From: Bispira polyomma
Taxonomy: Eukaryota
NCBI GenBank assembly: GCA_965649765.1
Contig: OZ287754.1
Span: forward strand, 37,386,001 to 37,450,000
Direction: 5' to 3'
Length of the DNA stretch: 64,000 nucleotides
The translations under genes were made by a program, and so were the position numbers. Below, one piece after another: positions 2,417 through 56,848 of the stretch; the first letter of the stretch is position 1; every line of letters begins with the position of its first letter. Below the pieces are notes generated by a model that saw nothing but the letters and a program-made list of their open reading frames with translations, did no database searches and was not told the DNA's origin.

Positions 2417-2943
2417 ACAGTTCCTCAGGATGTGGGCAAATGATAGATGATTAACCAACAACACATAGTGAGAAAAGATTGCGGTTAAATACTTTTATTA
2501 TATATATGATTTCTACTGCTAACATATTTTTATATACAGTTTCTTTGTAGAATAGGTAATACTGTTGTGGGCATAAGGTCCCCTTAAGTCAAGTGAGTTT
2601 AAGGCCTTAAGCTTATACAAAGCTTGGGTTAAGGTGACCTCAGGTATAATGAGTTTAAGAGTATAAGTATGCCAAAGTTGAGTTTGAGTCCAAACTTAAA
2701 GGATTTGAGTTTAAGGTTGAGAGTTTAAGTTTGGTAGAAATTTTTATTTTAAGGGCAAACTTAAGCGATTAAACTTTAAATTTATGTTAGTCTAAAGTTT
2801 GACTCAGGGTTTTAAGTCGAACTGTAGAAACTTGAGTACAATATGTACTAATATAATGAAGGGGGGGACCTTATGCCCCAAAAAGGTATAATATTTAGTG
2901 TTATTTAGACATATCTTAAGCCTAAAATTTTAAGTTAGACCAC
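2417..2943 (-). repeat. Split direct repeat B2 of copy 1
   Basis: Near-identical to 4011-4536. Confidence 0.95.
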
Positions 2944-3856
2944 TTGTATGTCGTTGTATGTATATGTATATAACACTTCTCAAGTAACCATGGTACATGT
3001 AAGAACTGCAAGTACAAAGACTGCTAAAAGTTTAAAAAATTAACAAATGTATAAAAGTTACAGGAAAACCAGGTTCCCACTAAAATAAATTTATAAAACA
3101 GGCAAGCCTGACATCACAGTTTACTAAATATATAATGGACCATGTTTAAAAGAGTAATATATGATATAGCCTTTGAATCACGTAAACCCACTGGCCAGTC
3201 GCTATTCTGATATCGTTGTCAGTCGGCCATCTTGAAACCCAGATTCCATGCATATAAAATAGAATTGTATTTTTAAACTTCCCTACTAGCTCAGTCTGCA
3301 AGCACCTTACGTGATTGACCAATACGATCCCTTAACCTGTGAAAACAAGAAAAACCAAAAACAACCAAAACTCAGTTGGGAAGTTACAGTGACACAAATT
3401 ATTTAAGTAACAGTTATTTTAATATATGATATCAACATCTGCAGGAATCTTGGTCCAGAAATACTGGGACTCCATCGGGATACTGAGGCTCCATGAAATA
3501 CTGAGGCTCCGTGCAATACATTGAAGCATCTTGAAGACAATACTGAGGCTCCAATCATACTAAAGCTGGAGAGAAGCACCACCACAAAACAGAGAGGACC
3601 AGGCCCAGGCACAATCGTTTGCCATCACTGTTCATGAAACACAGATAGAAGACACACAACAAGAAGCACAGACAAACCGGCCAGGTCCCAGCGGGATGCC
3701 GCTCCAGCAAATACCACAGAGGTTAAACGCATCATGTACATCTACATGAGGAGCTTGCTTAACATCTGAAATGACACACACTTTTTTAAGCAGAAATCTG
3801 TAAGTCAGAGCTCCCAGTATATCATATACATTTATCACCAGGGGCAGCGGAGGGTG

Positions 3857-4012
3857 GGTATTTGAATTTTCCTAGTGCTCTGCTGACAAACGGTAAAAGG
3901 CGGGAGAATTTAAAAGGGGGATGGCCTATATACTCGCCCATCCATCCCATAGTAGTGAACAGCCTGGTACCCCAGAACTGAGGCCGTCAACGCTGGGGGC
4001 GTTAGCTTTCAC
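3857..4012 (-). repeat. Split direct repeat A2 of copy 1
   Basis: Near-identical to 11273-11427; abuts B1, sharing AC at 4011-4012. Confidence 0.95.
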
Positions 4013-4536
4013 AGTTCCTCAGGGTGTGGGCAAATGATACATGATCAACCAACAACACATAGTGAGAAAAGATTGGGTTAAATACTTTTATTATATATAT
4101 GATTTCTACTACTAGCATATTTTTATATACAGTTTCTTTGTAGAATAGGTAATACTGTTGTGGGCATAAGGTCCCCTTAACTCAAGTGAGTTTAAGGCCT
4201 TAAGCTTATACAAAGCTTGGGTTAAGGTGACCTCAGGTATAATGAGTTTAAGAGTATAAGTATGCCAAAGTCGAGTTTGAGTCCAAACTTAAAGGATTTG
4301 AGTTTAAGGTTGAGAGTTTAAGTTTGGTAGAAATTTTTATTTTAAGGGCAAACTTAAGCGATTAAACTTTAAATTTATGCTAGTCTAAAGTTTGACTTAG
4401 GGTTTTAAGTCGAACTGTAGAAACTTGAGTACAATATGTACTAATATAATGAAGGGGGGGACCTTATGCCCCAAAAAGGTATAATATTTAGTGTTATTTA
4501 GACATATCTTAAGCCTAAAATTTTAAGTTAGACCAC
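4011..4536 (-). repeat. Split direct repeat B1 of copy 1
   Basis: Near-identical to 2417-2943; begins 12 nt after the YR stop. Confidence 0.95.
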
Positions 4537-4547
4537 CAAGCCCCAAA

Positions 4548-5533
4548 CTAGTAGGTGTTTTGTAGGACATCTTTAAAAGAATCTACAACTTGAGTACCAG
4601 CATCAGCAGAGTCTGAGATGTAACGCCACACGCAATCCGACGTCCAGGTGCCATGTTTTTGAATATCCTGAATCTTGACATTATTGTTAAACGCAAAGGT
4701 GGCACCTGAACGTCGGAAGGCGTGAAAGGTCAAGCCAGAGTATTGAGTACCAAGTAAGGATAGTACATTTTTGAGGTGCCTTCGCACACGTGTGTCCGTT
4801 AGTGGAACCCACGAGCCTTGGAGTTTAAACTGAAATAATGGGAGATTTTTCCCTTTAGGTGAGATGGCTAACACAGCTTTCAAGGCCTGAACAGGACAAA
4901 GAGTTGAATTATTTATACTAGGGATGGTTAGCAAACGAACTGCATCATTTCTCTGCAGCGTCTTAGACCATTTAACCATTATGACTGCATACCCTGGCTT
5001 AAACAGAACATCAGCTCTAGCTAATTGCTTAAGAGGAGAGTAAGACCCCATTGAATGAGGACACAGATTGGATAAATGCAAGAAAGTAAAAAAACTTGTC
5101 AAATAAACAGCCTTGAAGATTTGGCCCATGTAAGTACTATCACATTTACTAATGAGAGCCCTAAGCAAGTGTACATCAAAAATTGACTTCAATTTTGCTT
5201 ATAAAGGTCTATGCATGGCCAAGGCTTTAGTGAAATAAGAAATTCTCTGATCAAAAAATACTTGAACATCTATATGACACATAACACATTTTGCCTTCAC
5301 AGCCGAGATGTGATTTACTACCTGAGAGGCCGAAACACCATTGAAATTTAGAAACTCTAAATACACTAGAATTTGCAACACAGTCACCTTGTGGGGAGGC
5401 CATGACATAAAGGCTCCAAAAGCTAGGCACTGTCGGAACATTCTGTCATATGCTTTATTAGTAGCAGGAGTGAGAGCTGAGTTCAGCCTATTACAAGCCC
5501 GTCGCATCAGAGCCAGACCCACAGGGTGATTGC
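4548..5533 (-). pseudogene. Tyrosine recombinase of copy 1 (frameshifted)
   Basis: ORFs 5199-5522 and 4548-5192: LCPV, HAFRRSGAT, HGTWTSD, WRYI. The catalytic Arg motif reads FLHLSNL (R to H). Confidence 0.93.
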
Positions 5534-5606
5534 CTGGAAAAGAAAAAGCTGAGACCTGCTATATAAGAGTATTCACATGAAGTAAATTTTCAGGGGTAGG
5601 AAGCCA

Positions 5607-6161
5607 TTAAATTGGTCCAGCCAGTTGGTTCAATAGTAGGTGGTTATTTTCTGTCTCAGCCCATCTGGAAAGTAAGTCAGCCACTTTGTTCTCTCTACCT
5701 AGAATGTGGACTACAACAATTTCAATGTCAAACTTACTGGCTAATATGAAAATGTTTCTGGTATAAGTGGCCAATATGGGGTCTCTAGTACGGCCTGTCT
5801 GTAAGACACTGACTACTGCCTGATTGTCACATCTTACTAAAATTCTCTGACCCTTCCATTTTTGGACCCACAACTTCATTGCTACCAAAATGTTTAACAT
5901 TTCAAGAGAAGCTATATTATACTCTGTCATACTTGTAGGAACTTTAATTTGGTATACTTGGTTTCCATAAATCCCCCCCATGCCTGTGAGGCAGGCATCC
6001 AATTGTATCTCGCCTGATATGGGTTTATGTAAGAAAAAGGAGACACCATTGAACTGCTCTGCAAAAGTTCTAAACCAATTTAAGTCACGTCTGAATGCAT
6101 CACTTATTACAATTTTACTTTTACTGTGATTATCTCGTAGCAGTTCCAACATTCTATTCAA
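5607..6161 (-). pseudogene. RNase H domain of copy 1 pol
   Basis: DACLTGMGG, IASLEMLNI, RCDNQAVV, HILGRENKVADLLSR: RNase HI type of DIRS-group elements. Confidence 0.92.
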
Positions 6162-7366
6162 GAAAACCGAGCATACTTAACACATTTAGAGATATATAGC
6201 GAAAGGCCCAGTAAAGACTGTAATTCTCTTTTGGTACAATAATTTTTTGAAGCCCAATCCCTGCACTTGCTCTGAATTTCTGCCATTTTTTCGGATGGGA
6301 TAGAAGTTGTGCATTTGACTGTGTCGATTATTATACCCAAGCATACTACCTCAGTGCTGGGTCGAACCAATTTTTTCTGACTAACTGTGAGGCCTAGTTC
6401 AGCAAGTAATTCTTGCAGTCTTATAAATGTTTTCTGAATTTTGCTGAGAAGTGATACACATAAAAAATCGTCGATATAATTGTGGACGTTATGATTTTCA
6501 GAGTGCATTATGAAACGTACTGCATCCGAAATTCGTTGAAAAATAGTGCTGCCATTCAAATAACCGAACGGCAGTGATTTATCAACATAGTAAGATTTCC
6601 ACTTCAGCCCTAAGAGATCAATGTCGCCAGGGGCAATGGGGACGTGGTGAAACGCCCTACTCATGTCTATTTTAAATATCAGACACCCCTTACCCAATTT
6701 AGACACTTCAGTAGTAAGATGATCAATGGAAGGGTAAGACAGTAAAAAATCGACACCCAGATACAAAGTCGACGAAGCACCTGCATTTACGGAAGCCCGT
6801 TGAGGCCAACTCAAATCCACAATCACACGTCGGTTAATCGAGTTGGGTTTATGTCGGGTCATTAAGGGGGAGCAATGCAAATTCTGAATTGGTGGAGTGT
6901 CGAAAGGACCAAGCATTGCCCCAAAGCCACATTCTTCCTTCATATAGGCGTCTACATGTTGAGGAAATTCCTTTGCCAACTTATGGTTATTTTCATTCGA
7001 CTCAGTGTGAATTTTTCGACACACATCAAGAGGGAATCCGTATTTTATAAGGAGAGGCAGTCGCCAATCCCAGTAAGTTTGTAAATACTTTCCCCACGTT
7101 TCAGCTTTTAATTGAGAATGGACAGGAATCTGGAGGCCAGTATAATTATGCCTGCCATCAAGACGTATTTTCTTGTGCATTTCTAATATGGATAGTTCGT
7201 GCCCTCCCCCACCAAGGTCGGCAATCTCACCGCCCAAAGCCGAGAGAGGAATAAATCCATAAGCATGACTACTCTGGTCCTGCCATTTTTTGTGTGTTTG
7301 ATTCGAGGCCGCCTTCTGCAGCAACTCCCTTTTGTTTTTCTTGTGCTTTAAAGCACACAAATACAC
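6158..7366 (-). pseudogene. Reverse transcriptase of copy 1 pol
   Basis: RRVIVDLSWP, SVN, KIDMSRAF, LPFG, NYIDDF, CLGIIID, LQSLLG; frameshifted relative to the RNase H part. Confidence 0.95.
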
Positions 7367-8013
7367 AAATACAAATACTCAGAAATTTCAACATTTTCAT
7401 TCACACGTTCTGCGCAAGTACTTGTCTCTTGGTGCTTTGCAAAGCCCCCATTGTTACCCGGCGTGTTACTAGAGCGAACGGTCCTCATAATGACTGCATT
7501 GTCCTCCACAGGTATCTGTGCCAACGCGGAAAACCGATTGCTGAGCTGAAGGCCACAGTTAGCTTCATTGACGCGGCTCTTTTTGCCCCCCCCCTTTGAA
7601 TCGATTTTCTAACACTTTTTGTCTCCACGCCCTGTTGCTTTGTGCATGGGGGTCGCTTCACAATAGGTGTCACTTTGTTAACCACTTGAATGGAGGTGCC
7701 AATTACAAGTGTTAACTTTTCAAGCCTTTGAATAGATGTGGCAGCAGAGATGTCAACATTATTCTTGAGTTCATCTCTGCCAGCCTTTTGTGGTTGGCAA
7801 AATCTGCCCTTTGTCACCTTTCCAGAGCTGAACCTGTCAACCCTACCCTTATGGCTCAGACTTTCTGTATGTCCAGTACTATATACAAACATTGATTTCC
7901 TGGCACTAGCAGTACTTTTTAAAGCATCACTATAACTAACATCAGGTCGTTTGACCTTCATATAGCTACACATTTTCTGATACACATTTTTTCCCAACAA
8001 ATGAAAATCTTTA

Positions 8014-10002
8014 GATAGATAGATAGATAGATAGATAGACTTTATTTCAGGCCCAAGGCCCATATTAAAATATAATTAGTACAAGATAAAATAGCATCAC
8101 ACAAAAACATGATAAATATGTACACTAGTAAAAAGGTTCTGTATGAAAGGCTTTAAAATATATGACATACAAGATAAAAGACATATCTGATCAAAATATA
8201 TCAGCTTGATGTATATAAGGCTTTTTGCCAGGATTTACTTATTGTGCCACTTTTCAAATAAAAATTATTGCACAAGGCCTTCACAATATTGTTATTGGAC
8301 GTTTCTATGCGCACTTTGAGACTGTATATACTTTTTCTCAGAATAACACGTAAGCAATCTACATCATTGTTTACAAACATATGGCTGGCACTGTCTCTGT
8401 ATCCATATCCCAGTAACCTACGAACAACATTGTTATATGCCACTCGAATTTTGTTAAAACTTGTTATGTTGTAACTTGTCCATAGAGGACAGCAATAAAA
8501 ACTAGTACGATAAGCCTGCAGTAATTCAATTTTGACATGGGTGGAGCACTGACTAAATTTTCTGAGAAGTGTGTTTCCACGAGCATAAATCCCCCTAGTT
8601 TGTTTCGTAATTTCCTCATCATCTTAAAAACTGTGAGTTAGAATAACGTTTAACAGGGGTGTATCAGCAAGAGACACTGTAGGGCAATTTAATTTATACC
8701 TTTTAGGTTTAAACACTACACAATGAGATTTTTTTGCATTAAACAGTATATCATGTTTTAAGCCATAGTCATAACACTGGTTCATAAGTAGCTGCAACCC
8801 CATCGCAGTAGGTGCTAGAAGACAGAGATCATCTGGCTAAAAGAGATGATTAACACAGGTAGTGACATGGCAACCGATGCCTGATTTAGTTAATAGACAG
8901 ATCATCTAGGTAAATATTAAACAGCTTAGGGGATAGAATCCCACCTTGCCTTACACCATTGCATGAACTAAAACTGTCAGACACACGAGTACCCCATCGT
9001 ACAAGTAATAGTGGTATCTTACGTTTGATTAGTTTATTAAACAATGTCCAATGATTGACACGATCAAAGGCCTTAGAGGCATCTAAAAAACAAGTAAAAA
9101 CAGGGCTATTTAATTTTCTGTAATAGTCAATGGTACTTTTAATTGCGTAAATACACATGTCAGTGGCATGGTTGCTCTTAAAGCCAAATTGGTTGTCAGT
9201 TGTCTGCAGATACATGTCTATATTGTCTAACAGGAATAACTCAAACAGCTTAGAACAAGTAGTGACCAGGGCAATAGGACGATAATTGTTTTCATCATGC
9301 ATGTAGCCAGATTTGTTTTTTACAATTGGTACTAATACAGTTTTCATAAAATCATCAGGGATAAAACCATGGCTAATGATACATGAAAATAACATAGACA
9401 AATAGATACAGATGCTGTGGTCAGCATGTTTAAAATGCTCAGCACTTATTCCATCATGACCACTAGATTTACCAAGTTTCAGACTTTTAATTGCCTTTTT
9501 AATTGCAGCAGGGGAGACAGAGATGCTTTTCTCATTTATCTGGTTGAGTTGGTTCATGACATGAGATTTACATGCATCAGTAGTAACACAGTTTAGCAGA
9601 GCTTTATAATGTTTCTTCCACATTATCACAATATTACTTGATCCACAGGCACCCTTTACTTTTTCCGGGAGTGGAGTATTTAACTTTGAGCTCTGTGAAA
9701 CACTCTTCCAGAAAGACTTCATGTCTTTTTCTTTTAGACTGTTTGCTAATTTATCAGCTTTTATTTGTTGTTCTTGTAACTTGCATTGCCTCAGAGCATA
9801 TTTAAAGCTTAACCTTGAGCATCTCATTTCTTCACAGCTGGGGCCAGATTTATGTTTGCCTAGATTACGCCACAGGACATAATCATTTCTCGCTTTGCTA
9901 TACAATTCTTTTACAAGATCACTCCACCCAGGAACTGAGTAGTCCATTTTGTGTTGATTTTTGCTTAGAGGAAGGCATGCCCTGCTAGCTTCAGAGAGAC
10001 AA
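8014..10002 (-). mobile_element. 5'-truncated non-LTR retrotransposon (LINE) nested in the pol N-terminal region of copy 1
   Basis: ORF 8886-9947 has NYRPIAL, QFGFK, LDASKAFDRV, GVRQGGILSP; decayed C-terminus to 8201; AATAAA plus (TCTA)n tail at 8014-8047; TTTA on both sides (8010-13, 10003-06). Clade not resolved by eye. Confidence 0.9.
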
Positions 10003-10139
10003 TTTATAATGTCATTATAGAATATTGAAATTTCTTCTCTATGAGATGTACTTTTACAGTTAAAATCTTCACTTTGAAGCCTGTGCCGTAGACAGTTCTA
10101 TTTACAACCTTAAAATTTTTCACCTTTTTAACCACTGCA

Positions 10140-11186
10140 TCAGAGCAGTGGCCCCTCAGTTTTTGCCTCTTTTTTGCTACACATACTGGTTTTATGACTA
10201 CCCCCACAAGTTTCACAACCATGCCTATATATCTGCCCCCCTGTGTTGTGTGAACTAGAGAACTTGCAAGTCCCTTCCTGGAAAAACCTGCAAGGTGTCG
10301 ACTTTTTAGTTTTACTGCTGCCAGTGCTAACAGCACGGCCATTCGCCCCATGCATAGATCTCGACACACCTACATGACGTTGGGCGTGTGCCCTGCGAAT
10401 CCGGTCGACCTTCTCGACATCCAACCACCCGAGCTTGTCCATTTCCATATTGGTCAGGACTACCGCGTGGCAGGCCTTCGCCGCCTCCCACTAAAAGTCT
10501 TGGGCGTCCTCCATGAGGCCACTCATATAATCTAGCATAGCGTTCTTAATTTCAGTCGACATCTCCTCCTGAGCGATCCGGGTGAAGCCACAAACCCATT
10601 GTACAAGGGTTAAGTCGTCGTAACTAGGGCGAGTCTTCGAGCTGCCCATCAGCACATAATTCTGGGGCCATTCGACCGCCTTTTTTACAATAACCTCGTT
10701 TCCCCCAGTTCTCTGAGACTAAATTTTACCTGAGGGGTTTTCATTAAAAGACCAGAGTTCCTTTAACCTCTGTTCGACTTGCAACTGAATGTGAGCATTC
10801 TGATTCAAGAATCGATACTCGGAACAACAGTATCCGGGCCAGTAGGTGGGCCTTTACCTTCGTCAGTGGAGACTAGCTCTTTAGAAACACTAGGAGTAAT
10901 GCTAGAAGGAACGGTACTTGCCTTATTACTGGTGAGGTTGGCTGCTAACGCTGCCTCTGTCTGCTGGACTCGCTGATCCATCCTCTCGACTAAGGGATTG
11001 TAACTGCTGTAGTATAGCGCTAGATACAGCCTCGTTCGGATGAACCAGCGAGTCCTCATGAGAGCCAGCGTCAACCTCCACCCCCTCACCTGAGATATCA
11101 GGCATATTAACCAAACAGATTCTTCCAACCGGCCTCTCATGCTTTTGCAGACATTTCGGACAAAACACAGTCTTTTTACCTGGCAT
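10140..11186 (-). pseudogene. Gag-like ORF of copy 1
   Basis: N-terminal CPKCLQKHERPVGRIC knuckle; central WPQNYVL/YDDL/W.AAKACHAVVL; C-terminal CRFFQEGTC..H..HGCETCGGSH..C zinc fingers; stops and frameshifts. Confidence 0.85.
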
Positions 11187-11272: not shown

Positions 11273-11427
11273 GGTATTTGAATTTTCCTAGTGCTCTGCT
11301 GACAAACGGTAAAAGGCGGGAGAATTTGAAAGGGGATGGCTTATATACTCGCCCATCCATCCCATAGTAGTGAACAGCCTGGTACCCCAGAACTGAGGCC
11401 GTCAACGCTGGGGGCGTTAGCTTTCAC
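11273..11427 (-). repeat. Split direct repeat A1 (5' end) of copy 1
   Basis: Matches 3857-4012; contains TATATAA on the minus strand. Confidence 0.95.
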
Positions 11428-14478: not shown

Positions 14479-14890
14479 GATCATAGGGTAAAGTATTAAT
14501 TGTGAAAGATATGTCAAATGTCATGTCCGTGTTCTTGCTTTTTTATTGTAGCACAAAGAATGCCAAGAAACGGGAGAAAATAAGATGTAATGAATGTGAT
14601 TGTCATCACTAACAATAGAGAAATATTCTAATAAAATAAATACGAAATAAAATGTGCTCATAAAAATATGTGTTCCTTGAAAGGATCATAGGGTAAAGTA
14701 TTAATTGTGAAAGATATGTCAAATGTCATGTCCGTGTTCTTACTTTTTTATTGTAGCACAAAGAATGCCAAGAAACGGGAGAAAATAAGATGTAATGAAT
14801 GTGATTGTCATCACTAACAATAGAGAAATATTCTAATAAAATAAATACGAAATAAAATGTGCTCATAAAAATATGTGTTCCTTGAAAGGA
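14479..14890. repeat. Recent tandem duplication, 2 x 205 bp
   Basis: gatcatagggtaaag...gttccttgaaag repeated almost exactly. Confidence 0.95.
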
Positions 14891-15715: not shown

Positions 15716-18233
15716 TTATTATTATGAATTTTTAACTCGCTTTATTGATGCTAGGCATGTTCTAAAGTGCAACAGCAGAATCATTGATCCAATCATAAGT
15801 CCATGGACATAGCAAAGTTGTAATAAAGGAAGTAGGCGTGTGCACGATGGCAGTTAGGTGGGTAGGCAAGATAAAAATGATAGATTTTAAGCTTTTTCCT
15901 AAAACCAATTAGTGTGCAGTGGAGAACGCTCTGAATCCTGCCTTCCTGATGGGTCTGACCGAAGAGACGGAGAGTCTGTTGCCTCTCTTGCAGATACTGA
16001 AGGAGAGAAGGGAAGCAAGGTAGGGGGGCTGTTGAGTGACTACATCCTTAAAAGTGGTAACGTGAATGTGCTGAAAGGAAGCATAGACTTACAGATAGTT
16101 GTCAACCCTCTATGACTTACTTGTCTAAAGGAAATAAAAGCTTGTTTATGGAATTACTCAGGGGAAACACAACTATAAGGCCACCGGTCTACCTTGTAAG
16201 TTACAGCATATGAACAAATGGTCGAATCAACCTTTAGCTGAATACGTCATACCACTATCCTTTAGTGTATGATGAATGATGTGTAGTCTAATAGAGGGTG
16301 GATAAAGGCCTTGTTCTGACCTAGTTTAACCCCAGCAATTAATGGTTAATGGGATATTATTAGTCCCCACTCTATTATTAGGCCTTGTTTTGATGTCAGT
16401 GTAATGTTTGTGACATTGAATTCTGGGCTCTACCTTCGTACGAACAAATCATAGGATGTTCATATTGGTAAAATGTGTGCAGATGTAGAACATTGACCTT
16501 TGACTGTGATGCAATGACCTTTACTTGAAAATCTCTTCTGCACAATATACCATTTAATGAATGTCAAAAGAAGTATTTCCTAGCACCTGGGTTCAGTGGT
16601 AAAATATGACAGGTGGGTATTAAAACACTGCAAAACAAGACACTGTGTTGTACTAGTTCTGACTAGGGTTGGTTGTCCCTCTCTCTACATTGTTTATATT
16701 TCCATTATAAATGAAAAATGTAAACTGTCATCTGACAATCTAATGAAATATCAAATACTAATAATTAACAAGGGGTTTAACGAATGTTCATAACTAATAA
16801 AAAAAGCTATATATTTTGTCATTACTCATTATGCAATTTCCAATGGCAAGCCATTATTAAGGGTTCTGTTTCTAGAATCCCAAGTAGATCTGTACCTTTG
16901 GGGCAGTCTACTGGAAACATTAACTCAAACTTAAATCTGTGGTAAACCTAACAAGGACCGCTATCCAGAAGGGCTTGTGTGTAGAAGTAGCCATTACATC
17001 TGAACATTTAATTGGGTACAGGTTCCAGTGTTGAATGTGTATACAGGTTCAGTGTTTACATATATTTGCTGTCCCTAACAGGAAACATGCAGACCCAGAT
17101 TCTAGAAATAGGACATTTTAGAAGTAATCACATGAAAAGTTCACTCTAAAAAGCTTCCAGTTTACTGAAAAAGGCTTGTAGTTGCTGCACCATTACAAAT
17201 TTACATTGAAAGCCAGTTGCCATGACTCACCAGAAGCCACTTGTGAATAACTATTTACATAGACGTAGTTAACCCAATGTTACTTAACAATGTACTTAAA
17301 TAAGTGGAATCACAGTAACAATACATGGTAATGGCTTGTGTTGATACATGGCATCAATGGTCAAGGACGTGGTTTACAGAAATGGGTCAAGAGGAGATTA
17401 ATAGTAAGCTCTGACTGCTAGATCAACACTATCATTTGGTTTGTTTGTTTATCACCAGGATGGCACAGACTAAAACACATTTACTTAAAATTTGGTAGAG
17501 AAGGGGGCTTGGCTCTTGACATAATTCATAAATTTTGGATCCACAATTATTGTTACTTTTTGGTGCTGTGACCTTCTTGTTATAAATATTAATTTGTTTT
17601 TGGGTTTTGTTTCTGCATCTATATTACTTCAAAGAGCACTTTTTATATGTTTTACTGATTTTACTGTTTCATGTTGCAGTGTTATTTATCATTTAGGTAC
17701 TTCAGTGTCATCATACCTACAATGTATGGTTTGCATTACATGTGAGTTAATCTGGGCAGATGGGTATGCACTCAGATTTATATCAGCATTAAAATATATA
17801 TGCAGCAAAATGTCACTGTCCTCTGAATAATTTTTGTTCTTACTTTTCTTCTTATTCTGTCAAAATTGAGCCTTCATTTCTGTCATGTTTTTACAGATAA
17901 ATGACTAATGTATCATTTTGTAACATTTACATCTTTTCTGTTTTATATAGTAAAACAACTTCGTATTAGTCAAAATTTATAGCATATAGGTAGATTCATG
18001 AATTTTCTTTCACAGTTTGACATTTTGTTTTCTGTTGCAACCAGTGGGCGTACTTTGAAAATAATGTTGTAATTTTAACATACTTCTTGGGAACATATCA
18101 TGCTAGACATGTTAAATATGCTGAGATGCATAGGCTGTATATTTTACTTGATCTACACACACTATGCTCCTCTCTTCAGTGTCATTGTTTTTTCTTTTGC
18201 AAGTACAGAAACTTCTGCATTGTTCTTTGGCAA

Positions 18234-19227
18234 TGGCCTAGTCACACCTACACGTGCTGACGTTCGCCAACGTAGAAAAGCCACATAAACTGAAAATGTG
18301 GTAGTTTTGTGTCAAAGTTACGTCATTTTCATAGAGGGGAGTCGATTGTGACGCTTTGTGGCAATGTTTGTACTTATACACACAAAGCGAGGCAAAAATG
18401 GAACACGTTACTGGTAGAATATCACTACCTACTACTATGTAGAGCTAATGTACTCCTACTTACTGGTGCGCTCTGCGCAATGGCGTAGTCGGACCTACAC
18501 ATGCTAACGATCGCCAACATAGAAAAGCCACATAAACTGAAAACGTAGTAGTTTCGTGTCAAAGTTAGGTCATTTTCATAGAGGGGAGTCGATTGTGACG
18601 TTTTGTGGCAATGTTTGTACTTATACACACAAAGCGAGGCAAAAATGGAACACTTTACTGGTAGAATATCACTACCTACTACTATGTAGAGCTAATGTAC
18701 TCCTACTTACTGGTGCGCTCTGCGCAATGGCCTAGTCGGACCTACACATGCTAACATTCGCCAACATAAAAAAGCCACATAAACTGAAAACGTAGTAGTT
18801 TTGTGTCAAAGTGATGTCATTTTTATAGAGGGGAGTCGATTGTGACGTTTTGTGACGATGTTGGTACTAATATACACAAAGCGAAGCCAAAATGGAACAC
18901 TTTACTGGTAGAATATCACTACCTACTACTATGTAGAGCTAATGTACTCCTACTTACTGCTTCTTACTACTACAGTATGCTACTTATACAAACGAGTGGA
19001 GGCGTCCTTGAGAAACAGAGAGCTCTGTTACGTTTGTTTCAAACATTTTGAAACAATCGTCACAGGGGACCAAATGGAGACGTTTCTGAAACGATATAAT
19101 CCGTTAAGTAACGTCACAGAACGAACTAACCAGGGATCCTCACTTTAGCGTTACCTTCTACTATGTTTTAAAACTGTTAAAAACGTCACACACACGTAGC
19201 TCCAGCACGTGTAGGTATGACATGGCG
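18234..19227. mobile_element. Harbinger-type MITE with triplicated 247-bp left end
   Basis: TIR tggcctagtcacacctacacgtg ... cacgtgtaggtatgacatggcg; units start at 18234, 18481, 18728; homologous (inverted) to 38037-39737 and 52171-52500. Confidence 0.8.
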
Positions 19228-20380: not shown

Positions 20381-22259
20381 AGATATCACAGACGGATATA
20401 TAGCTTTTCTGATGTTCTTCTTTTATCAAAATGAGGATTATTGTCATTTTCCCATTTTTATTGAGACCTCCAAGACATATATTGTATAGGCCTTATGAAA
20501 CCCAACAAAATAAATATAAAAGCAGATTCGTAATAATCTTTAGCCTTTTAATCTGTAACATTATCAGTAAAGCATACATTTTTGTCACCTTGGGAAATAA
20601 CACGTCTCAGTTCTGTATCTTGACAAATTAGCAGTTACATAACTCCATATTGCCTTAATAGGGGAGGTAAACTATCTCAGGTTCGTGCTACATGTTCTGA
20701 GAGTCAGATAATTCTATACTTTTGGCATTATCTCTCCGACGTGCCTTTTTAAAGGCTATTCTTGTGTACCTGTATCTCGATTACTGTAAAATACACATTT
20801 GCTTAGGTTTTCTATGTTGTACAATCTGGCAGTGTTATTTATCATTTCAGTAGTCCAGTCTCATTATTCCTACAATGTATGGTTTGTGTTACATGTGAGT
20901 TAATCAAGGTAAGGGGTTATGCAATCAGATTTTACAGGCAATAGGATGAAATATGTCTTTTGAATATTTTTTTTTCTGTATTTTTTTTGAGAAAACTGAG
21001 CATTGAATTGGAGATAAGCAGTGATTTAAGTCACAAAAAATATAATTACATATATTTTAATAATGAAAGGTGCTGTAGTTATAACTTATAAGTTGAAGTG
21101 GATTAACATGTCACCTTGTACATTTCGCAATTGTACAAGACAAGAAGACTTTGAGACGCATTGGCTGTTTTTTATTTGACGTACCCAAGCAATGATTCCG
21201 CACTCGTTCCTGCAGTGTCATTTTGAATTTCGTAAGTGTGCCATGGTCAGCAATAACTTTAATTTCAGATAATTATTATGTTGCAGCCACCCATGACTTT
21301 GCAAGGGCTAAGCTAAATTTGCAGTTCTTGGGGTAAGCCAGAACACAACAGCATAATCCTCATTGTCACAAGGGGTTTTACTATTTAGCATAAATAGGGC
21401 ATATGTTTCTGTTATCATTTTACTCGCTGAGTGCTTGGTAAGTTGTGCTATGTGACTTGATGAACTTGTGACATTTAAAGAGAGGTATTGCATAAGCATT
21501 ATTAAACCCATCATAAAAGATAATGGCAGATTCATACCAATGTTCAGCCTTTTAATCTGTAGCATTATTAGTAAAGCAAAAATGTACAATTTGTTGTCTG
21601 GAGAAGTAATAATGCTCATCTTAGTAGCTTTAAAAATGCTTAGCTGGACATTTAGAACTCCTGTAAAGCACATTTATATTATGTAGCTTTAATATGAGCT
21701 TCTATAACTCTGTTGTAAAGCCACCGCGACACTATCAACTATAATCGTAATGGTTCACGAGTGGTGCAATAGGTTGGGAGCAAGGCCCGATAGATTGGGA
21801 CAGATTGGGAATTTTGCTCTTATGAACCCAAAAAATCCTATCGATTGACCAAGACAAGTCAGGATAAAATGATCATAAAGATAGGTCGCTGTCATCTTTG
21901 ATAGGTCAGTACCATGCTTCCGATAGGTTGGTACCTCGATCCCGATTAGTCACTACCTCAAAGACATAGATCTTGCAATTTTGCAATTCGGAGACATACG
22001 AAACCTCGTGATTCACCTCAAAACCATATACAAAGGGGCAGAGCACACAAAATCCAGACAGTTTTTATTGAGAAGTCAACTGAGCAACATGATACTCCAA
22101 AGGATTATAGATATTGGCCAAATTCTCTAAGCTTGGTTTGCATTTATGCGGATACAACAACTTACACTTAGACATTTTCAAGGTCAAAGAAGAAGACAAA
22201 ATCTCATACCGTCGCAGAATTAGAATCAGGATAATAATATCGGGATCAGGAGAGTCAGA

Positions 22260-23135
22260 CCACCAAGGAGGTTCTGGGTGAACCCATTACTCCGCTATAG
22301 GGAGGAGCACGGTCACTACTCGGCACTTCTACCACTGATGGAGGCACAAGATTCACAGTCGTTTAGGAACTTTTTAAGGATGACCCCGGAATTTTTCCAA
22401 GAAGTGGAGAGGAGGTTGGCCCCCAGGATTGCACGAAACACGACCTGGTACCGTAAGGCACTGTCAGCTGACTTTGGCGACTGGAGAGTCGTACACCACA
22501 CTTCAGTATGCACTCCAGGTGGGGAGGTCAACCATCACTACGTTTGTTCCCAAGGTTTGCCAGGCAATCATCAACAAATTCCAGGAGCCCCACCACCCAG
22601 AGAATTGGAAGAAGGTTGCAGCCGTTTACAGAGAAAACTGGAATGTCTCCAATGCCCTGGGGGCTATAGATGGCAAACACATAGCAATGAAATCTCCAAG
22701 AAAGGGGGGAGTGAGTTCTACAACTAAAAGGGATTCCACTTCATCGTTATGCTAGCCCTGGGGATGCTGAGTACCAGTACCAGAATTTCTACTTATCTGA
22801 ATTGAAGGAAAAGATTGAGGATCAGTCTATCAACTTTGCCCCACCTGAACCCACAAGCCCTGGTAGGCCCTCCACCCCCTACTTCATCATAGAAGATGGC
22901 GCATTTGCCTTAAAGACTTGTATTATGAAGCCCTTCTCCAGCAGAGGCCTGGACCCCAATGAACGGATGTTTAACTACAGGATATCCCAGGGCAGAAGGG
23001 TGGTGCAGAATGCCTTTGGTATATTAGTGGCCAGGTTTAAACTTTTACTCTGGACGATGCAGGAGGAACCATCTGTGGTAGCGACCTTAACCTTGGCCTG
23101 TGTAGTCGTTCACAACATGCTCAGAAGTGATATTA
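22260..23135 (+). pseudogene. Harbinger (HARBI1-like) DDE transposase, frameshifted
   Basis: FRNFLRMTPEFF, LATGESY, GAIDGKHI, IIEDGAFAL, FNYRISQGRRVVQNAFGILVARF, HNML. Confidence 0.9.
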
Positions 23136-23223
23136 TTAACCAGGGAGGAGACCAAATGAGGAAGCTGCCGAGGTATTCAGTATGTCACTGTTGTCCATTG
23201 ACATTGGGTTTTAGTAGGCTCCA

Positions 23224-23750
23224 CTAGTCGAGCTGCCTCCAGATATCACTTGGTGGCCCTGCTGAATACCACTCGTGCTGGCCAAGAATGGTAATGCTTG
23301 TGTTGTTTGTGTTGTAATCACATGTGGGCCGGGTTGTGGCTGTTGCTGCTGCTGTGGAGGAGGCTGTTGTCTTGGTGGTTGTTGATATAGTCTCTTGCAT
23401 CTTCCGAATGGAATCTGCTAAGTCAATGCACAAATGCTTATCCTGTCTCTCCTGGATAAGGGTAGAGGATCCAAAGGCTGAGGACTTTGGTGAGGCCAAG
23501 TTGGATGACTCCATCTTGCCCTGGTCTGTGGCGGAGTAGGATAACGTAGCCGGAGAATCTGGAGTAATTCTGGGCTAGCTTGCCCAGACTTGGACACATT
23601 CAACTTGCCAAAGATAGTCCTCTGGGATGTGAACCACTTCATGACTTCTACGTAGTCCAATCCCTTGGTTAAGCAGTACAACTCCCACAACATGTTCTTC
23701 CTCTGAGTGTCTTTATACAGTGGATCGCGCTTATTATAGAGCCACTCATG
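23224..23750 (-). pseudogene. Myb/SANT(MADF)-like DNA-binding ORF of the Harbinger element
   Basis: LWELYC...KWFTSQRTIFGKLNVSKSGQA; convergent with the transposase, as is typical for Harbinger. Confidence 0.65.
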
Positions 23751-26700: not shown

Positions 26701-27529
26701 ATTGTATTCTACTTTCTACATTTCTATACACACAATAAAATCTTTAATCATTTAGAATTTTTATGAACTTGAGTTGGAGGTTAACCTTATCAAACTTATG
26801 AACCTAAATCAAACTTATGAGTTTAAGTATCTAAGAATAGGATAACCATAACTTACAGTTTTAAAGTTTACAAGAGTTTAAGGTTACCATAAGTTAAACT
26901 TAAAAGTTTAACTATCCAATAATATAGTAACCTAATGTTTAAACTTTTAACGTAATGTCTTTGATCTTAAGTCAATCTTAAGTTAAAGTTATAGTAAGTT
27001 GAGATTACCAAATTTGAATTAAGGTGGCTTTAAAATTAGTTATATTTGAATAGTAAAATAACATGTATATTCGGAGGAAAAAAAGATCACCAAGACCTAG
27101 CGCATTTTCTGTTTCTCGCCAATAGCACTAGTAAGAATATATCTATGAAGATATCAATTTTTAGCCAGTGCCCCTGGTTTGGGTGCCTATGGAAGGGTAA
27201 TCAATATTAACAAAGACTTATTCCTTATAAATGCACAAGCAGTTCTAGTGTGATATTGTGTGCAACTCCATCGAGTTGGATTACGACTCAGTCATAATGG
27301 ACCAGATCAAATAATGAACCAGTCCGCTAGGGGACATTAGCCAATCACAGCAAGCGGCTGCCTATGTAAACAGCAGCACGGGCTGTTTGACTTCATTATT
27401 TCAAGTATTTTTAAGCGGGAAGCATTTCTCTCTATTTTTATAGTGATAATTTTAAACTGTCCGTCATACGCTTGTTAACTCCTTGCGGGGTAAAACATAG
27501 TAATGACTAGTGTGGACATTCATAGCACA

Positions 27530-29170
27530 GAAAAGTCAGTTTTTGTAAAAAATGCGAATGTGAGCATGAGAGGCCAGTGGGCTTGAATGTACCAGAAAGA
27601 ACATGGCTGCCGCAGGTAAACCCGCGGATATGAAGGAGGTGGGGAGACAAGATCTTGTCCACAAGAATGTAAATGAGACTGCAAAACAAAGTGATGTGGC
27701 CATGGCAACGTTTATGTCTACCATTCAAAGTTTTGATGAGCAGCTGGGAGCAATGGAAAAATGCATGGTCGATATGGCGGCGGGAGTGGACAAGCCTCGC
27801 AGGACTTCAGATAAGAGGCATAACGAGAGCACGGGGGAACATGGAGAGTCTGAAATTAAGGATAAAAAGAACAGACACAGACAATTAGTAGGGGATGTTG
27901 ACCAAGGTCAAGTCACAGAAGTACAGTCTGAGTTACAGATGAAACAGACTTTCATTGATACAGCTGTAGTATTCAAGGAACCCACACTCAAGGCTTGTAA
28001 GATGCAGACCCCCAAAGTAAAAAAAAACAAGGCAGGGGAGGAGTTGGTTTTCATAGACAGCAGTGAAATCTCGGTCATACAACCCGATGTCTCGCAAGAC
28101 GTGAGTTACAGGCAAGCAGGGGATACACAAAATACTTACATTAATGCCCCTGTTATGAAGCACAGTTACCAGCCGATACAACATAACGTGGCTTGGGGTG
28201 GAAGAACCCTAGCTCAGACGGGAATGCCTGTACAGTCCATGGGAGGCAAGAAGATACAACGGGATTTTAACTTTAACACAGTGATTTAGGGGCGCCAGTG
28301 CAGGTGCAAGGGATGGTCAATGCTACAGCAGCTGCTGCTAGCGCTCCAGTGGCACCCTGGAGAGGAACAGTCACTGACACAGTGACACCAGTACTAACTT
28401 TGGCAGGGACGTCCTGGGGTGACCAGGAACAGGGGCAGACCGGTGACTCTCTCTCTCTCTCTCTCTCGAGGCTTTGAGGAACAACCCGGATGTCCAAAAG
28501 CTTGTGGACGAAAAAATTGCTGTGCTAGAAACAAGGATGAGGCTGGAGCTTCAGCAAGGTACGAAAAGGAAGAAGAGTGGCCGTTTCAACACGACTGACA
28601 AGCCAAGCCATGTGGCACACCTCAGGTGGCCAAATGAAGCATGTTTAATAGGGCCAAATCGTAAACGAAACACCTACGACGAGTTATCTCTGGGTCAGTT
28701 TGTAATTGGGAGTATTAGAAATGCACTTAATACTACTGATGTGGCGATGGCTCGGCTCATGTTGAGGTAATTGCTTGAGACAGTACAATTGGCCGAAAAC
28801 CTATATTGGCCAATTGCAAAGGGAGCCCTTGCTGCGTCAATGCATCAGGAGAGGAGGAGAAGCTGGATTGGGAGAACACAAGGGCCTGGGGGGAGAATAA
28901 AATGACTTTTATGCAGAGTGTCGTCTTCAACGGCTCAGTTACCATGCAACCGAAATCGCACACCATGAGGGCTTCTAGCACCCAAGCAAAAGCAGAGAAA
29001 GTCAAGTGAAAGTATTACAACCAGACCTTGTGTGTACATCAATAAGATCATTCGGATCAGTCAGGGGCCACATTATTCACGTTAGTCACATTTGCAGCTA
29101 CTGTTTCAAGGCCCTGAGGCACGAGAACTCTCATCCCGAGAGCAGTTGTAATATATAATAGAAAACGGTG
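27530..29170 (+). pseudogene. Gag-like ORF of copy 2
   Basis: ORFs 27603-28289 and 28474-28770 are homologous to 53491-54831; N-terminal Cys/His knuckle. Confidence 0.75.
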
Positions 29171-29899
29171 AGCCATGACTAGGATTCAACAGGCTGCAGT
29201 GACATTGAACATAATATCCTATATTCAAATGGTGGTGGGCATTCATGGGTCAATGTCGGTCCTAGTAATTTTTCTTCTAAATTCGGTTCTGATAAAGTTG
29301 TGTCAGCAAACACCTGTTGCTTCAAAGACTTGGCTTCGCAGTGGTGTTGGAGGTGGGCCATTTCTTCATTACAGGCATTTCATGCCAGAGGTTCATTTAA
29401 AAATTCATATAATATTAAAGTGCAACGTTTTGTCGGGCTTCCCCTGTTTGGATGCCCATGTTTCCGGCAGGAAAGAACGACGCCTGTGACGAGGCCAGAT
29501 ATAGACTCCAGCATAAGTACCAGACTGTTTGATAGTAGTTCAGTATGTAATTTGGTTTATTTTCAGTTAAACAGAGATCAACAAGTACTTAAGCAACAGA
29601 CTGATCAGAACAAGGTAGGTAAGGTTTCGGAAAGTGTAAATAACCAGGCTTGTGACCTGGATGATGGCAAAATGGTCAAATGTTTTAGTAAAGATGTTTG
29701 AGTTTTGTCTCTGTATCAACAGTAGCCTCGAAAGGGATGGTTAATAAAGATTATGACTCTCCTGACCCTATGCAGTACAAGCAAATCATTGACAGAGTCA
29801 CTAGACTTTGACTAGCCAAATTATTTGGGTGAGAGCATTCTGTTGCACTCTGATTTTGACCTTCAGTTTTGGGCAGACAACATAGGGGGGGGGGGGGGG

Positions 29900-30830
29900 G
29901 TTTATGCCCAAGCTCTGTGGGATTACATTAGGTTTGGCTTTCCCCTTGGTATTGATTATGAGAAAGTTATTGCGACTCATAAGGGGGGATAATTATTCCG
30001 CTGCTAGGCAATATCCTGCAGCCGTGGACAAATACTTGACCACTGAAATGTCGCAAATGGCTATCATAGGCCCATTTGTAGACGTACCACATGAGAATTT
30101 CACATGTGGTACCCTTATGACTAGACCTAAGGACGTAGACCAACGAAGGGTGATCTTAGATTTGATATTTTGAGACAACTCAGTGAACAGTGAATTTTAG
30201 GATAGACAACACAAAGCTGGGTGAGATTTGGCAAGTATGTAACGACAGTATTCAGGTGACAAAAGTGTCTTTTGGCCAGTTACAGTCATTGCTTGGTAAT
30301 CTTTTGTATGTGTCTCGGTGTGTGCCAGGTTCACCAGTGTTTTTAAATAGGCTGCTTGGACTATTAAGGCAGCATAGACATGATAGGTATTTTGGGCCTA
30401 AACAGGAGTTTTTCTTGGATGTATCTCGTTTTGTGAGATTCTTGAAAAAATTTAATGGGGTTGTTTTTTTTCAAACGAGAACGGCAACAGGTCTTTGTAG
30501 ATTCAACTTTGAAGGGGATATGGGGAGTTTGGCCGGATCACGTTTACTCTGTGGAAATACCGCGAGGTTTGGTGAATACCCAGGCAATTTCTCAATTTGA
30601 ACTGTACAATTTGTTGGTGGCAGTGAGACTCTTGGCTCACAAATTGAAAGATCAAGTCATATGTATTAGGTGTGACAATGCTGCTGCACGTGATCCTTTC
30701 ATGAGTTTGTGTATACGGAATTTGTGGTGATGTGCTTCTATGCACAACATTAATATAACTGTGAAGCATATAGCTGGTTAACATAATGTGTTAGCGGACC
30801 AGTTGTCACGGTCCACCAATGAAAAAGTAA
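29900..30830 (+). pseudogene. RT (internally deleted near 30190) and RNase H remnants of copy 2
   Basis: GPF..P...LMTRPK...RRVILDL joined directly to QLQSLLGNLLYVSRC; ISQFELYNL, IRCDN, ADQLSR. Confidence 0.8.
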
Positions 30831-31014
30831 TCAGAGATTATTGTGATATGGTTGTTGAAACTATCACCAATGACAGAGTGTATATATAAAACAGTTTAGG
30901 ACGTTTTTACCATTTCTCTTCTAGAACGAGATCTCGTTTCCTGCAAATGGGGAGTGTTCTGATGTATTCAGAGTTCTCAACAGCACAGGCTATAACATAC
31001 CGATTAATTAATAT

Positions 31015-31328
31015 TTATGTTTCAGGTATCAGATTGTGTTTGAATATGTATGGTGTGGATATGCAAGTATGGGAACATGTGACTGCATTTCCTCAGCACC
31101 AGGCCAAGGGGTTCAAGGTCAGGAAGACAAGGTAGTTAAATGACAGAATGCGGTAAAACATTTATTTGTTATTATGTTTCAGGTATCAGATTGTGTTTGA
31201 ATATGTATGGTGTGGATATGCAAGTATGGGAACATGTGACTGCATTTCCTCAGCACCAGGCCAAGGGGTTCAAGGTCAGGAAGACAAGGTAGTTAAATGA
31301 CAGAATGCGGTAAAACATTTATTTGTTG
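31015..31328. repeat. Tandem duplication 2 x 157 bp spanning the copy 2/copy 3 junction
   Basis: ttatgtttcaggtatc...catttatttgtt repeated at 31015 and 31172. Confidence 0.95.
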
Positions 31329-31902
31329 TTATACTAAGATGTTAGACTACTACTAATGTATTACTACTATGTACAGGATGAACTTAAGGTTACCGTGAAC
31401 AATTAATTTTAAAAAGGTGACCTTAGGGCCACTTAAAGTGGTAAATGTTTTATTTTAGCATCAGATATAGAAATTTTAGGTAAGGTCACCTCAAACCGAA
31501 ATTAAAGTCCAAATTATTAAGATACTCAGCCAATGGCCGTTACATGAGTAAAGGTGACCTTAAATCCAAAGTTTAATATAGAAGTTACATTGATTTAAAG
31601 TTACTGTACTGTAACATTCAATTATATTTACTGGGTAATGAGTTTACACAAATTTGTTACTGTACTGTAACATTAATAGAATATTAATAACTGGCACAGT
31701 CTTGAAACCCACATAATTACAGCAATTTACAGTTGCAATTTAATTAGAGCAATTTACAGTTGCAATTTGTAATAACTTTAAGACAATTACTAAGTAATAT
31801 CATTAATTTACGTGGGATACTAAGACATAAACTTTAGGACAGAAAAGATGTATTAAGCCTCTGAATTGACTAGAATCAGCCAAACACCAAGACAGTAGGA
31901 AT

Positions 31903-32882
31903 TTAACTAGGAGTAGGGGGAGAGAGGTGAAGCCTGAAGGAGTCAGCTACTTGGTGGCCAGCATCCACCGTGTCCGTGACATACCTCCACACGCAGTCCG
32001 AAGTCCAGGTGCCATGTTTTTGTATGTTTTGAATACTAACATTATGGTTGAAGGCAAAGGTGGCACCTGAATGACGGAATGCATGGAAGGTAAGTCCTGA
32101 ATTTTGTAGTTCCAGTCAAGTTAATACATCTTTTAGGTGTCGACGCACTCTGGTGTCAGTGAGTGGAACCCAGATCTGATTGACTTTAATTTGAAATAGG
32201 GGTGAGTTAGGCTGAGGAGGAGTGAGGGACATAATGGCCTCCAGTGACCCTACAGGACATAATGGAGAACCCGGTAAGCGAGGTACAGTTAAAAGCTTGA
32301 TTTGTTTGTTGTTCTGCATTGTTTTTGACCACTTGATTAGAATAACTGCTTTGGAGGGGTGAATCATGACATCAGCCCTGGGTAGATGTTTCAAGGCAGA
32401 GAATTGGGAAGCAGAGTGTGGCACAAGATTTGATAGTCGCAAGAAAGAGAAATAACTGAGCAAGTATACTGTTTTGAAAATAAGACACATATAGGTTGTA
32501 TTTGTAACAGCAATAATGTCAGTAAGGGTCTTAATATCTATGACCTTTTTGAGTTGAATATTAAGGGGGGCAGCCATTTGTACAGCCTTCTGGTAATAGG
32601 CTATTCGAGGGTCACTGAAGGCCTGAACTTGGACATTATGCACAATGGATTCGGCTCTAATGGCACATAAATAGTTGGCCATATAACAGAATTAAAGTGT
32701 AACACCTCCAGGAAACATAAATGGTCAAACACAGTCACCTGATTTATGGGCCGTTCCATGAATGCAGCATAAGTCAAGTAGACTCTGTACATGGTTCTGT
32801 AGGATCTAGCAGTGGACCTACAGAAAGCCAGGTGCAGTTTCCTCACAGCATTGTCATATAGTACCTTTTGGACTGGGTTCGC
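31903..32882 (-). pseudogene. Tyrosine recombinase of copy 3
   Basis: FLRLSNLVP, LCPV, TDTRVRRHLK, HAFRHSGAT, HGTWTSD; stops and frameshifts. Confidence 0.92.
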
Positions 32883-32917
32883 CTGTGAAACACAATAGTT
32901 ACAAGAAGTATGGTGTG

Positions 32918-33520
32918 CTATATGTTTTTATTAATTAGTAAGTGTTGTTCGGTCACAGGACACCATTGGACTGGCCCTGCAAGATCATGTAAATGAATAT
33001 GATTTTCAGTGGTATCCTCCCATCTGGACAGCAGGTCGGCTGTTTTGTTTTGGTCACCTAGTATGTGTATGACTTTTAGTTCAACGTCATACTGACTGGC
33101 TAACATAGATATGTTCCGTGAATACAATGCAAGAACACAGTCCCTAGCTCTGCCATCGGTGAGAACGCTCACCACTGCTTGATTGTCGCACTTTATGAGC
33201 ACCTTATGACCCTGCCATTGTTCTGCCCACAACTTAAGAGCCACATAAATATTCAACATCTCCAAAGAAGCAATGTTTTGCTGTCGTAATTGAGCAGGTA
33301 TAGGTAATATATAAACTTTCTGTCAATAGATTCCCCCCATGCCTGTAAGACATGCATCTAATTCCACCAGATTAGTGGTGGGGTCATGGTGGAAAAAAAG
33401 AGACACCGTTAAATTGTTTGAGGAATGTTCGAAACCAAGTCAAATCTCTTTGGAACCCTTCAGTGACTTTGAAACGGCTGCTCTCATGATTACTTCTGAG
33501 GAGATGAAGCATTCTGTTTA
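32918..33520 (-). pseudogene. RNase H of copy 3
   Basis: DACLTGMGG, LEMLNI, KCDNQAVV, ADLLSRW. Confidence 0.9.
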
Positions 33521-34812
33521 AAAAAAAATCTTAAATATTTTACACATTTAGATATGTAAAGGAGGGACCCCATTAAACACTGGAGCTCCCTTTTTGTGCA
33601 GTATTTTTTGCCAGCCCAATTTTCGCACATGGCTTGGATATTTTGTAGTTTCTTCTCTGGGATCGAGGTGGTGTATTCCACCGTGTCTATTTCAATGCCA
33701 AGACATGTTACCCGTGTTGCAGGGGAAACTAGTTTTTTGTCACTTAGAGTCAAGCCTAGCTCAGCTAATAGGGCTTGAAGCCAGTGATATGTGTGGTATA
33801 TTTTTGACGGAATGGAGCAGCAAAGGAAGTTGTCTATGTAGTTGGTAATATAGTGGCCTTCCGTTTGCATTATGTACCTAATACCATCCGATAAACGCTG
33901 AAAAATAGCCGAGCCATGCTTGTACCCAAAGGGCAGTGAACCATCTACATAGTAACCGTTCCAGAGGAGCCATAGCAAGTTAAGATCCTTTGGATCCATG
34001 GTTACGTGCCTGAATGCACGGCAGACGTCAGCTTTAAAGATTAAAGAACCCCTACCCATGTTAATGACCTGAGAAGTTAGCACATCAATTGATGGGTAAG
34101 TGAGTAAAAACTCTTTGCCAAGGTAGGAAGTGGGGCATACAGCCGCGTTAACCGAGTGGCCTTCAGGCCAGCTCAGATCAATGATCACCCGACGGTTTGT
34201 TGAACTCAATTTTTCCCGGGTCATCAACGGGAAATTGTGCAAATTTAAAATTGGTGGCACCTCAAAGGGACCATACATGGCCCCTAACTTACATTCTTCC
34301 TTCAGGTAGTGACTCACGTTGGTGGGATGTTGTTCAGCAGAATTGTGGTTCTTAAGCTCAGACTTAAAGTCATGGTTTTCAACACAGTCAAGAGGGAATC
34401 CGTACTTAATTAATAAGGGGAGTTCCCAGTCCCAATAGTCTTTCAAGTAACTTTCCCATACAGGGGCATTAAGTTGAGAAACCATGGGAACCTGCAGGCC
34501 CCTGTAGTTAGGACGCCCATCGAGTTTAAGATATTTATGGAGTGTGAACACATACATTTTTACTGGTTGATTAGGTTTATCTGTTATGGGTTTTCCCCAA
34601 GACTCGAGTGGAATAAAACCAAATTTACCACAGTTTTGTATGTCCCACAGCTTATAGGTATCACATTGTCTTGCGTCATTAAGACATCGTCTTTTGTCAG
34701 CAGATTTTTGTACTGCCAAAGCATACTTGTCATCAGAGTCAATTAAACCAGTCTGTTTACTAGTCTTGGTCAACGTGTTAACCTCTTTTGTTATTTTGTT
34801 ATCCCCACACAA
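33490..34812 (-). pseudogene. Reverse transcriptase of copy 3
   Basis: RRVIIDLSWP, KADVCRAF, LPFG, NYIDNF (second catalytic Asp changed to Asn). Confidence 0.95.
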
Positions 34813-35399
34813 TAGTTGCTGTCACTTTCACTCACCACCTCCACCTCGGGTAAGTCCAGCAAAGCATATCTATTGTGGAGTTCTAATTGAAAGGGGGAAC
34901 ACCCAGTTCTTTTGTTGGCACTCGCCGCCTGAACCCCCCAGAGGGGGACAATTGGTCATCTCCTCCAGGAGATTTCTTTGTGGGGGGAGAGCGCCGACCA
35001 CATGTTAATTGATTTCTGACACCTTGTTTACTAGTGGTGCTAAGACCTTTGTTGTTGACCTTTTCCTGACTGGCAAGTTTGTTGGGGGAGAGCAAGGTTT
35101 TGTTTAAAGTTGTACTTTTCCTAACTTTATTAATTGCAACGCTTTTAACTTTGTAAACATTTTCTTTCTCGTTTTTTGCTGGGAAATTTGCTCCCCTTTT
35201 AACTCCCCCAATTTCGCTCACAGTCAAGCTTTTCCTGACAAGATTTGAACTACCTCGGTTCACTAACACGTCCTTATAGGACCTGTTTTTGTTTTTAGAA
35301 CATATATAGTGGTTAAAATACATTTTGTCACACAATTTAAACTCCTTAAACTCTAATTATATATGAATTATATACAACCCTGGAGAACACAGGATTTTC

Positions 35400-56800: not shown

Positions 56801-56848
56801 CGAAAATACATCTTAGCTGATATGTCGTCATTATATGTCAATTTGTAG

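Follow-up and report, generated by a model that had tools for sequence, protein, structure and literature searches.

Conserved splice-like sites in Ngaro-type retrotransposons of Bispira polyomma point to a probable Gag-recombinase fusion made from a spliced RNA

Ngaro elements are tyrosine-recombinase (YR) retrotransposons of the DIRS order, and their plan is defined by split direct repeats in the arrangement A1 ... B1 A2 B2 (excerpted text of PMC9210276). As to how these elements produce their third protein, the guess that has been stated for Ngaro is ribosomal frameshifting: the 2015 review of Poulter and Butler, as quoted in an excerpt of PMC13003380, has the Ngaro YR overlapping the reverse transcriptase/RNase H (RT/RH) region in the -1 frame and probably expressed by this route. 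Overlapping or frameshifted open reading frames (ORFs) are what the Ngaro literature describes, with splicing unmentioned in the excerpts concerned (PMC9210276, PMC4157794, PMC3783388, PMC8547959). Here we examine four elements (copies 1 to 4) in a 64,000-nt stretch of Bispira polyomma contig OZ287754.1 (positions 37,386,001-37,450,000; hereafter the window, in whose positions all coordinates are given). The four are Ngaro-type YR retrotransposons, but in contrast to the described Ngaro elements the YR of this group is often free of overlap with pol and is bracketed by conserved putative splice sites, a mid-gag donor and an acceptor at the opening of the YR frame, both in phase 1. Judging from the sequence, we consider it highly probable that the unspliced RNA of these elements serves as genome and as message for Gag and Gag-Pol, and that a singly spliced RNA makes a protein in which the N-terminal part of Gag is joined to YR. 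A preliminary description of the window had proposed a spliced RNA of this kind, and the conservation of both sites and of their phase in three deep clades and in other assemblies supports that proposal.

Gag-like, RT/RNase H and YR regions are present in all four window elements, each of which is decayed. With Ngaro they share the A1 ... B1 A2 B2 repeats, recovered by self-alignment in copies 1 and 4 and in genomic loci L075, L082 and L090; the order gag-like, RT/RNase H, YR, confirmed by ORF maps and Pfam matches (RVT_1, RVT_3, Phage_integrase, SAM-like); and the lack of a methyltransferase domain after RNase H, for which none of four intact pol ORFs has a Pfam match at E 0.1. The YR frame comes directly after RNase H and encodes a Cre-like recombinase with invariant columns for the catalytic residues R, H-x-x-R, H/W and Y. 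ORF1 is called gag here for its position and its Cys/His motifs; a fold search with Gag gave a best Z of 5.0, without a clear match to a capsid-like fold. The surrounding 1.035-Gb genome holds many elements of the same type, and 80 loci picked from its YR matches, together with the four window copies, form a comparative set of 84 sequences in about 26 families. Among 19 family representatives YR identity is 28-93% (median 39%), and the YR tree, in which a mis-framed metagenome row (L144x) is disregarded, has three deep clades. Relatives outside this genome come from two metagenome assemblies (L144-L147; YR 30-38% identical), and none were found in the viral contigs or phages searched.

The donor lies at the same place in gag throughout the set. 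A phase-1 GT follows the first base of one gag glycine codon in 72 of the 74 copies with an alignable gag block (10 of the 84 sequences lack one), and all 26 of the donor-side family representatives, which are intact copies chosen by hand, read G/GT. Both exceptions are mutants: L083 carries a point mutation and L095 a deletion that begins at the donor. Conservation reaches positions that the protein leaves free, with A at the synonymous position -2 in 25 of 26 representatives, as against 11.8 expected from codon usage, and A at +3 in 24 of 26 though the next residue varies. By comparison, GGT makes up 359 of 1159 glycine codons (31%) and fills at most 9 of 14 rows in 18 other conserved glycine columns; the donor column itself first scored 14 of 15, and 14 of 14 once the frameshifted L072 ORF was left out. 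The U2-type consensus for a 5' splice site is MAG/GTRA, which the position table of the 26 representatives fits, and the donor is also present in the three metagenome relatives that have gag.

The acceptor is as constant. Among the 67 of the 80 loci that have a YR frame of at least 300 aa, a phase-1 AG opens that frame at one alignment column in 65; L054 and L084 are mutated, and the AG of L053 is a deletion junction. The site has the T-rich tract and YAG of a U2-type 3' site in 19 of 19 family representatives, each with T at -5, and in 14 of 14 relatives of copy 2. In the family of copy 1 the CAG is kept in all 30 loci, the window copy included, while the length of the T-tract varies. The relatives of copy 3 (L080, L082, L083, L134) have the acceptor in phase, L134 being checked with an anchor that matched one of five close loci, and so do all four metagenome relatives. 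In L072, L075, L077, L081, L082 and L083 the TAG that stops pol is the acceptor itself. Taken over the alignments, the acceptor pattern across families is far beyond chance. In a null scan over gag, pol and YR in three phases (4,206 aligned positions for each motif), the donor was the sole invariant GTR (14 of 14 families) and the acceptor the sole invariant YAG (19 of 19 families); the next-best positions reached 75% for GTR and 80% for YAG. A conserved acceptor for pol, hinted at by L095, was considered and is excluded, as pol is without an invariant YAG.

Joining donor and acceptor leaves an open frame, which would encode 478-694 aa, in each of the 11 intact copies tested; the predicted intron measures 2.8-3.4 kb in uninterrupted copies. 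The Gag model places the donor in a loop after a helix (residues 139-157) and ahead of the helical core. On the other side of the joint, the exon 2 model of a relative whose first methionine is residue 79 (pLDDT 91.5) matches Cre/Tre over its whole length, from the first helix (TM ~0.7, E ~1e-9), with the SAM-like domain at exon 2 residues 18-83. The first methionine past the acceptor falls anywhere from residue 1 to 142; three families have it at residue 79 or 95, and in these internal initiation would remove the N-terminal SAM-like domain and truncate the enzyme. The preliminary description had the Cys/His knuckle of Gag joined to YR, but this knuckle is missing from exon 1 in the clade of L097-L110, where Gag starts with a basic stretch; what stays constant in exon 1 is the helix that immediately precedes the donor.

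We propose that two RNAs arise from one promoter, probably in repeat A1. The unspliced RNA would act as genome and be translated into Gag and Gag-Pol, Pol being reached by a -1 slip or by stop readthrough at the end of gag. Signals that could serve this step are conserved: clade I has an A-AAA-AAC heptamer, a stop and a conserved hairpin at the gag-pol junction in all nine gag ends listed and in L063 (hairpin z -3.0 to -4.9 in the three folded), and most gag ends outside clade I have an in-frame TAG-G (gag ends compared: L031-L067, L080-L109). We take these to be recoding signals of the slip and readthrough-like kinds. A fraction of the RNA would be spliced by the major spliceosome, from the mid-gag donor to the acceptor just past the pol stop, which would take out the remainder of gag together with the whole of pol. 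The spliced RNA would then be translated into the Gag N-terminal part followed by a complete Cre-like recombinase, and the Gag part may load this enzyme into the particle or guide it to its target.

In the window, copy 1 lies on the minus strand. Its 5' repeat A1 (11273-11427, 98% identical to 3857-4012) is followed by the predicted coding exon 1 at 10730-11186, which in translation has the gag ATG, a CxxC-H-C knuckle, a long helix and the pre-donor helix; it is frameshifted here and 155 aa long in the family. The donor, aligned across copies, is at 10724-10733 (exon end 10730), and the predicted intron (5534-10729) contains the rest of gag and RT-RNase H, along with a LINE of ~2.06 kb (8013-10071) that is delimited by a gap against the uninterrupted relative L037 and has an RVT_1 match. 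Past the T-rich acceptor (5534-5548; exon start 5533), the predicted exon 2 (4548-5533) encodes the whole recombinase with one internal stop (PF00589). The 3' repeats at 2417-4536 are, by self-alignment, B1 (4011-4536), A2 (3857-4012) and B2 (2417-2943); ~0.9 kb of extra DNA (2944-3856) separates A2 from B2. Copy 4 (plus strand, 53260-58288) has A1 at 53260-53444, B1 at 57766-57906, A2 at 57896-58081 and B2 at 58152-58288, with its donor at 54607-54616 (exon end 54610) and its acceptor at 56839-56848 (exon start 56849); the acceptor TAG is also the pol stop in the closest family, and a stop occurs ~21 codons past the junction.

Copy 2 (minus strand, 31905-36200, ends approximate) has a 5'-truncated gag, RT-RNase H and YR, and sits between the two halves of the YR of copy 3. 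Its donor is at 35991-36000 (exon end 35997), and the position of its family acceptor is 32885-32898 (exon start 32884). Copy 3 (plus strand, 27256-36844, delimited by blastn to L080 and L082) has its YR split into 30889-31085 and 36207-36844 and its donor at 28555-28564 (exon end 28558). The eight donor and acceptor motifs quoted in the preliminary description all occur where it had placed them, and its four donors are true homologues at the same gag glycine in phase 1. Its acceptors hold as family sites in copy 1 (5534/5533) and copy 4 (56848/56849), which do join in frame, and have to be withdrawn for the other two. For copy 2 it had named 32883/32882, but the family acceptor, an in-frame YAG in 14 of 14 relatives, is found 2 nt further upstream, where a point change has destroyed it in the window copy. 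For copy 3 it had named 30924/30925 (motif at 30911-30924), which alignment with L080, L082 and L083 places within YR coding sequence; by the same alignment, a deletion of ~100 nt near 30885 took out the true site. The out-of-frame joints of these two copies, for which local indels had been considered plausible, come from these mis-called acceptors, and both families join in frame.

An unlikely alternative, though the best of those considered, is that both sites are real and unpaired, the acceptor taking another or a trans-spliced leader with YR starting at its own ATG, and the donor serving another product. Many families do have an ATG 1-13 codons from the acceptor, and the L095 deletion begins at the donor and ends within pol, as such an arrangement would allow; against it, the first methionine is at residue 31-142 in several families, both sites are always in phase 1, a constraint that a non-coding leader would not impose, and the alignments of gag, pol and YR hold no second invariant GTR or YAG (the scan covered these coding regions and not the untranslated ones).

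The proposal of a single gag-to-YR splice has to be set against several observations that weigh on the other side. The donor-acceptor junction has been observed in no transcript. Exact spliced copies in the genome are likewise missing, with no junction match in three families, one of which has 48 exact matches to its unspliced donor motif, so that the proposal needs the added assumption that copying of the spliced RNA is inefficient. A Gag-YR fusion protein is absent from the 120 listed of 398 database matches to YR, from the 150 listed of 269 matches to gag exon 1 and from four long YR matches, and an exon 1 search for longer proteins came back empty; the database proteins examined look like plain ORF calls on DNA. 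Many donors are weak, +5 often being a base other than G (12 of 26). The loci were selected for an intact YR, and the families of one genome are related, so their counts are not independent. Finally, an overlap of pol and YR (4-22 nt, -1 frame) is present in most members of the other two clades, and in two of 19 families it contains a canonical slippery heptamer in the appropriate frame. Contigs from three runs whose type is unrecorded, aligned to L111, bear neither way: their cover is even, as for DNA, and none of the 15 joints listed (177 more are unlisted) is the donor-acceptor joint.

Those overlaps and heptamers are also what speaks for the published frameshift proposal for Ngaro, under which YR would be reached from pol by programmed frameshifting or readthrough as a Gag-Pol-YR protein, with the splice-like sites secondary (excerpt of PMC13003380, quoting the 2015 review). 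Overlap to some extent is present in 33 of 62 scorable copies, and pol and YR share one frame in a database ORF and in L048 and L053. As a general account it is nevertheless very improbable. The other 29 copies have no overlap, among them all 10 scored from the youngest family; the YR frame stands at 0, +1 or -1 to pol by family and differs even between sister copies; 17 of 19 families have no slippery site in the -1 overlap; and the invariant gag donor is left unexplained. YR has no ATG conserved across families, and both of the other routes that the preliminary description had raised, a conserved ATG and a frameshift, fail in many families. For some families, namely the two with a heptamer and those with short -1 overlaps, frameshifting into YR is possible. 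L048 and L053 owe their single frame to one deletion each. Least probable is that there is no splicing and that the motifs arise incidentally from constraint on the protein (a Gln-Gly-Lys turn in Gag) and from an AT-rich spacer: the glycine and a following K/N are largely kept in database gag homologues and the spacer ahead of YR is AT-rich, but synonymous positions are constrained (GGT only, after an A-ending codon) and the AG is kept at a column with varying residues, as at no other of the 4,206 positions.

Deletions offer no more than a post hoc hint, three of ~30 (33 rows, some of them repeats) ending within 4 nt of donor or acceptor (L095, L053, L048). L048 could suggest template switching on a spliced RNA, but this is ruled out by the genomic acceptor bases that it retains. 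In L046, pol carries a 94-nt insertion (~2473-2566, oriented) that duplicates the gag segment starting immediately upstream of the donor. Elements of this type are often nested or adjacent, as are copies 2 and 3 (27256-36844) and L111, L112, L113 and L116, hinting at a target preference for relatives. The metagenome contig L146 (5.9 kb) is circularly permuted, beginning and ending within YR, the layout expected of a circular intermediate or of a collapsed tandem. Elsewhere in the window, the LINE-type reverse-transcriptase segment within copy 1 ends in a TATC repeat and a second lies at 38527-39483; a decayed DDE_Tnp_4 (Harbinger-like) transposase occupies 22224-23224, and a rhodopsin-family GPCR ORF 48490-49317 (minus strand; 7tm_1, E 2e-18). 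Tandem arrays are found at 45006-45736 (period ~43 nt), 18230-18970 (~247), 1596-1934 (~86), 14479-14888 (~205) and 31003-31316 (~157).

The donor and acceptor are a real and strongly conserved feature of a known element family, and the route of expression that they suggest is one for which we found no description in print. Natural gag-to-YR splicing goes undescribed in the excerpts of PMC7192593, PMC4157794, PMC13003380, PMC9210276, PMC3783388, PMC9341512, PMC6681497, PMC8547959, PMC12477816, PMC2632668 and bioRxiv 10.64898/2026.05.21.726589; Goodwin and Poulter (2004) and the full 2015 review lay outside the search, and an earlier mention is possible. In the excerpted account of Cafeteria Ngaros, loss of ORF1 accompanies a changed target preference (PMC8547959), and a Gag-YR chimera could be one explanation. 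A broader proposal, on which we are evenly divided, is that Gag-exon splicing is the general and ancient mode of YR expression in Ngaro-type elements and that integration is carried out by a Gag-YR chimera, with the Gag part loading the enzyme into the particle or selecting where it inserts; if true, it would replace the frameshift model and explain why target preference in Cafeteria Ngaros appears to be set by ORF1. A gag-to-YR intron gives an exact and testable junction, and would redefine the YR protein as one of ~480-690 aa with a Gag N-terminus in place of the 330-aa ORF usually annotated. It also suggests how the recombinase could reach cDNA and target, and is relevant to assays of these enzymes.

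Among known systems, Cre shares the full two-domain fold predicted for exon 2, but is ~15% identical, has its own start and carries no Gag extension. The errantivirus gypsy makes its env subgenomic mRNA by the same splice scheme as the retroviral env mRNA, and in Ty1/Copia elements splicing balances structural against enzymatic proteins, the spliced RNA there making Gag alone, whereas here it would make the recombinase. In simple retroviruses, one splice skips gag and pol to express a 3' ORF while the unspliced RNA is genome and Gag-Pol message (excerpted text of PMC10309623). The present elements would share this scheme and differ from it in that the product is the integrating enzyme and that exon 1 contributes 150-370 Gag codons, not a short leader. 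The closest analogue is CERV of the C. elegans element Cer1, made from a spliced mRNA in which exons of the gag frame are linked to an ORF further downstream, so that the protein shares Gag sequence (PMC10309623, same excerpt). Cer1 belongs to the LTR elements and has a DDE integrase, and CERV is encoded by five exons and functions in RNA export (PMC10309623). The analogy implies no sequence similarity. If YR is expressed as we propose, these elements, a lineage without an integrase, would have converged with retroviruses on subgenomic splicing.

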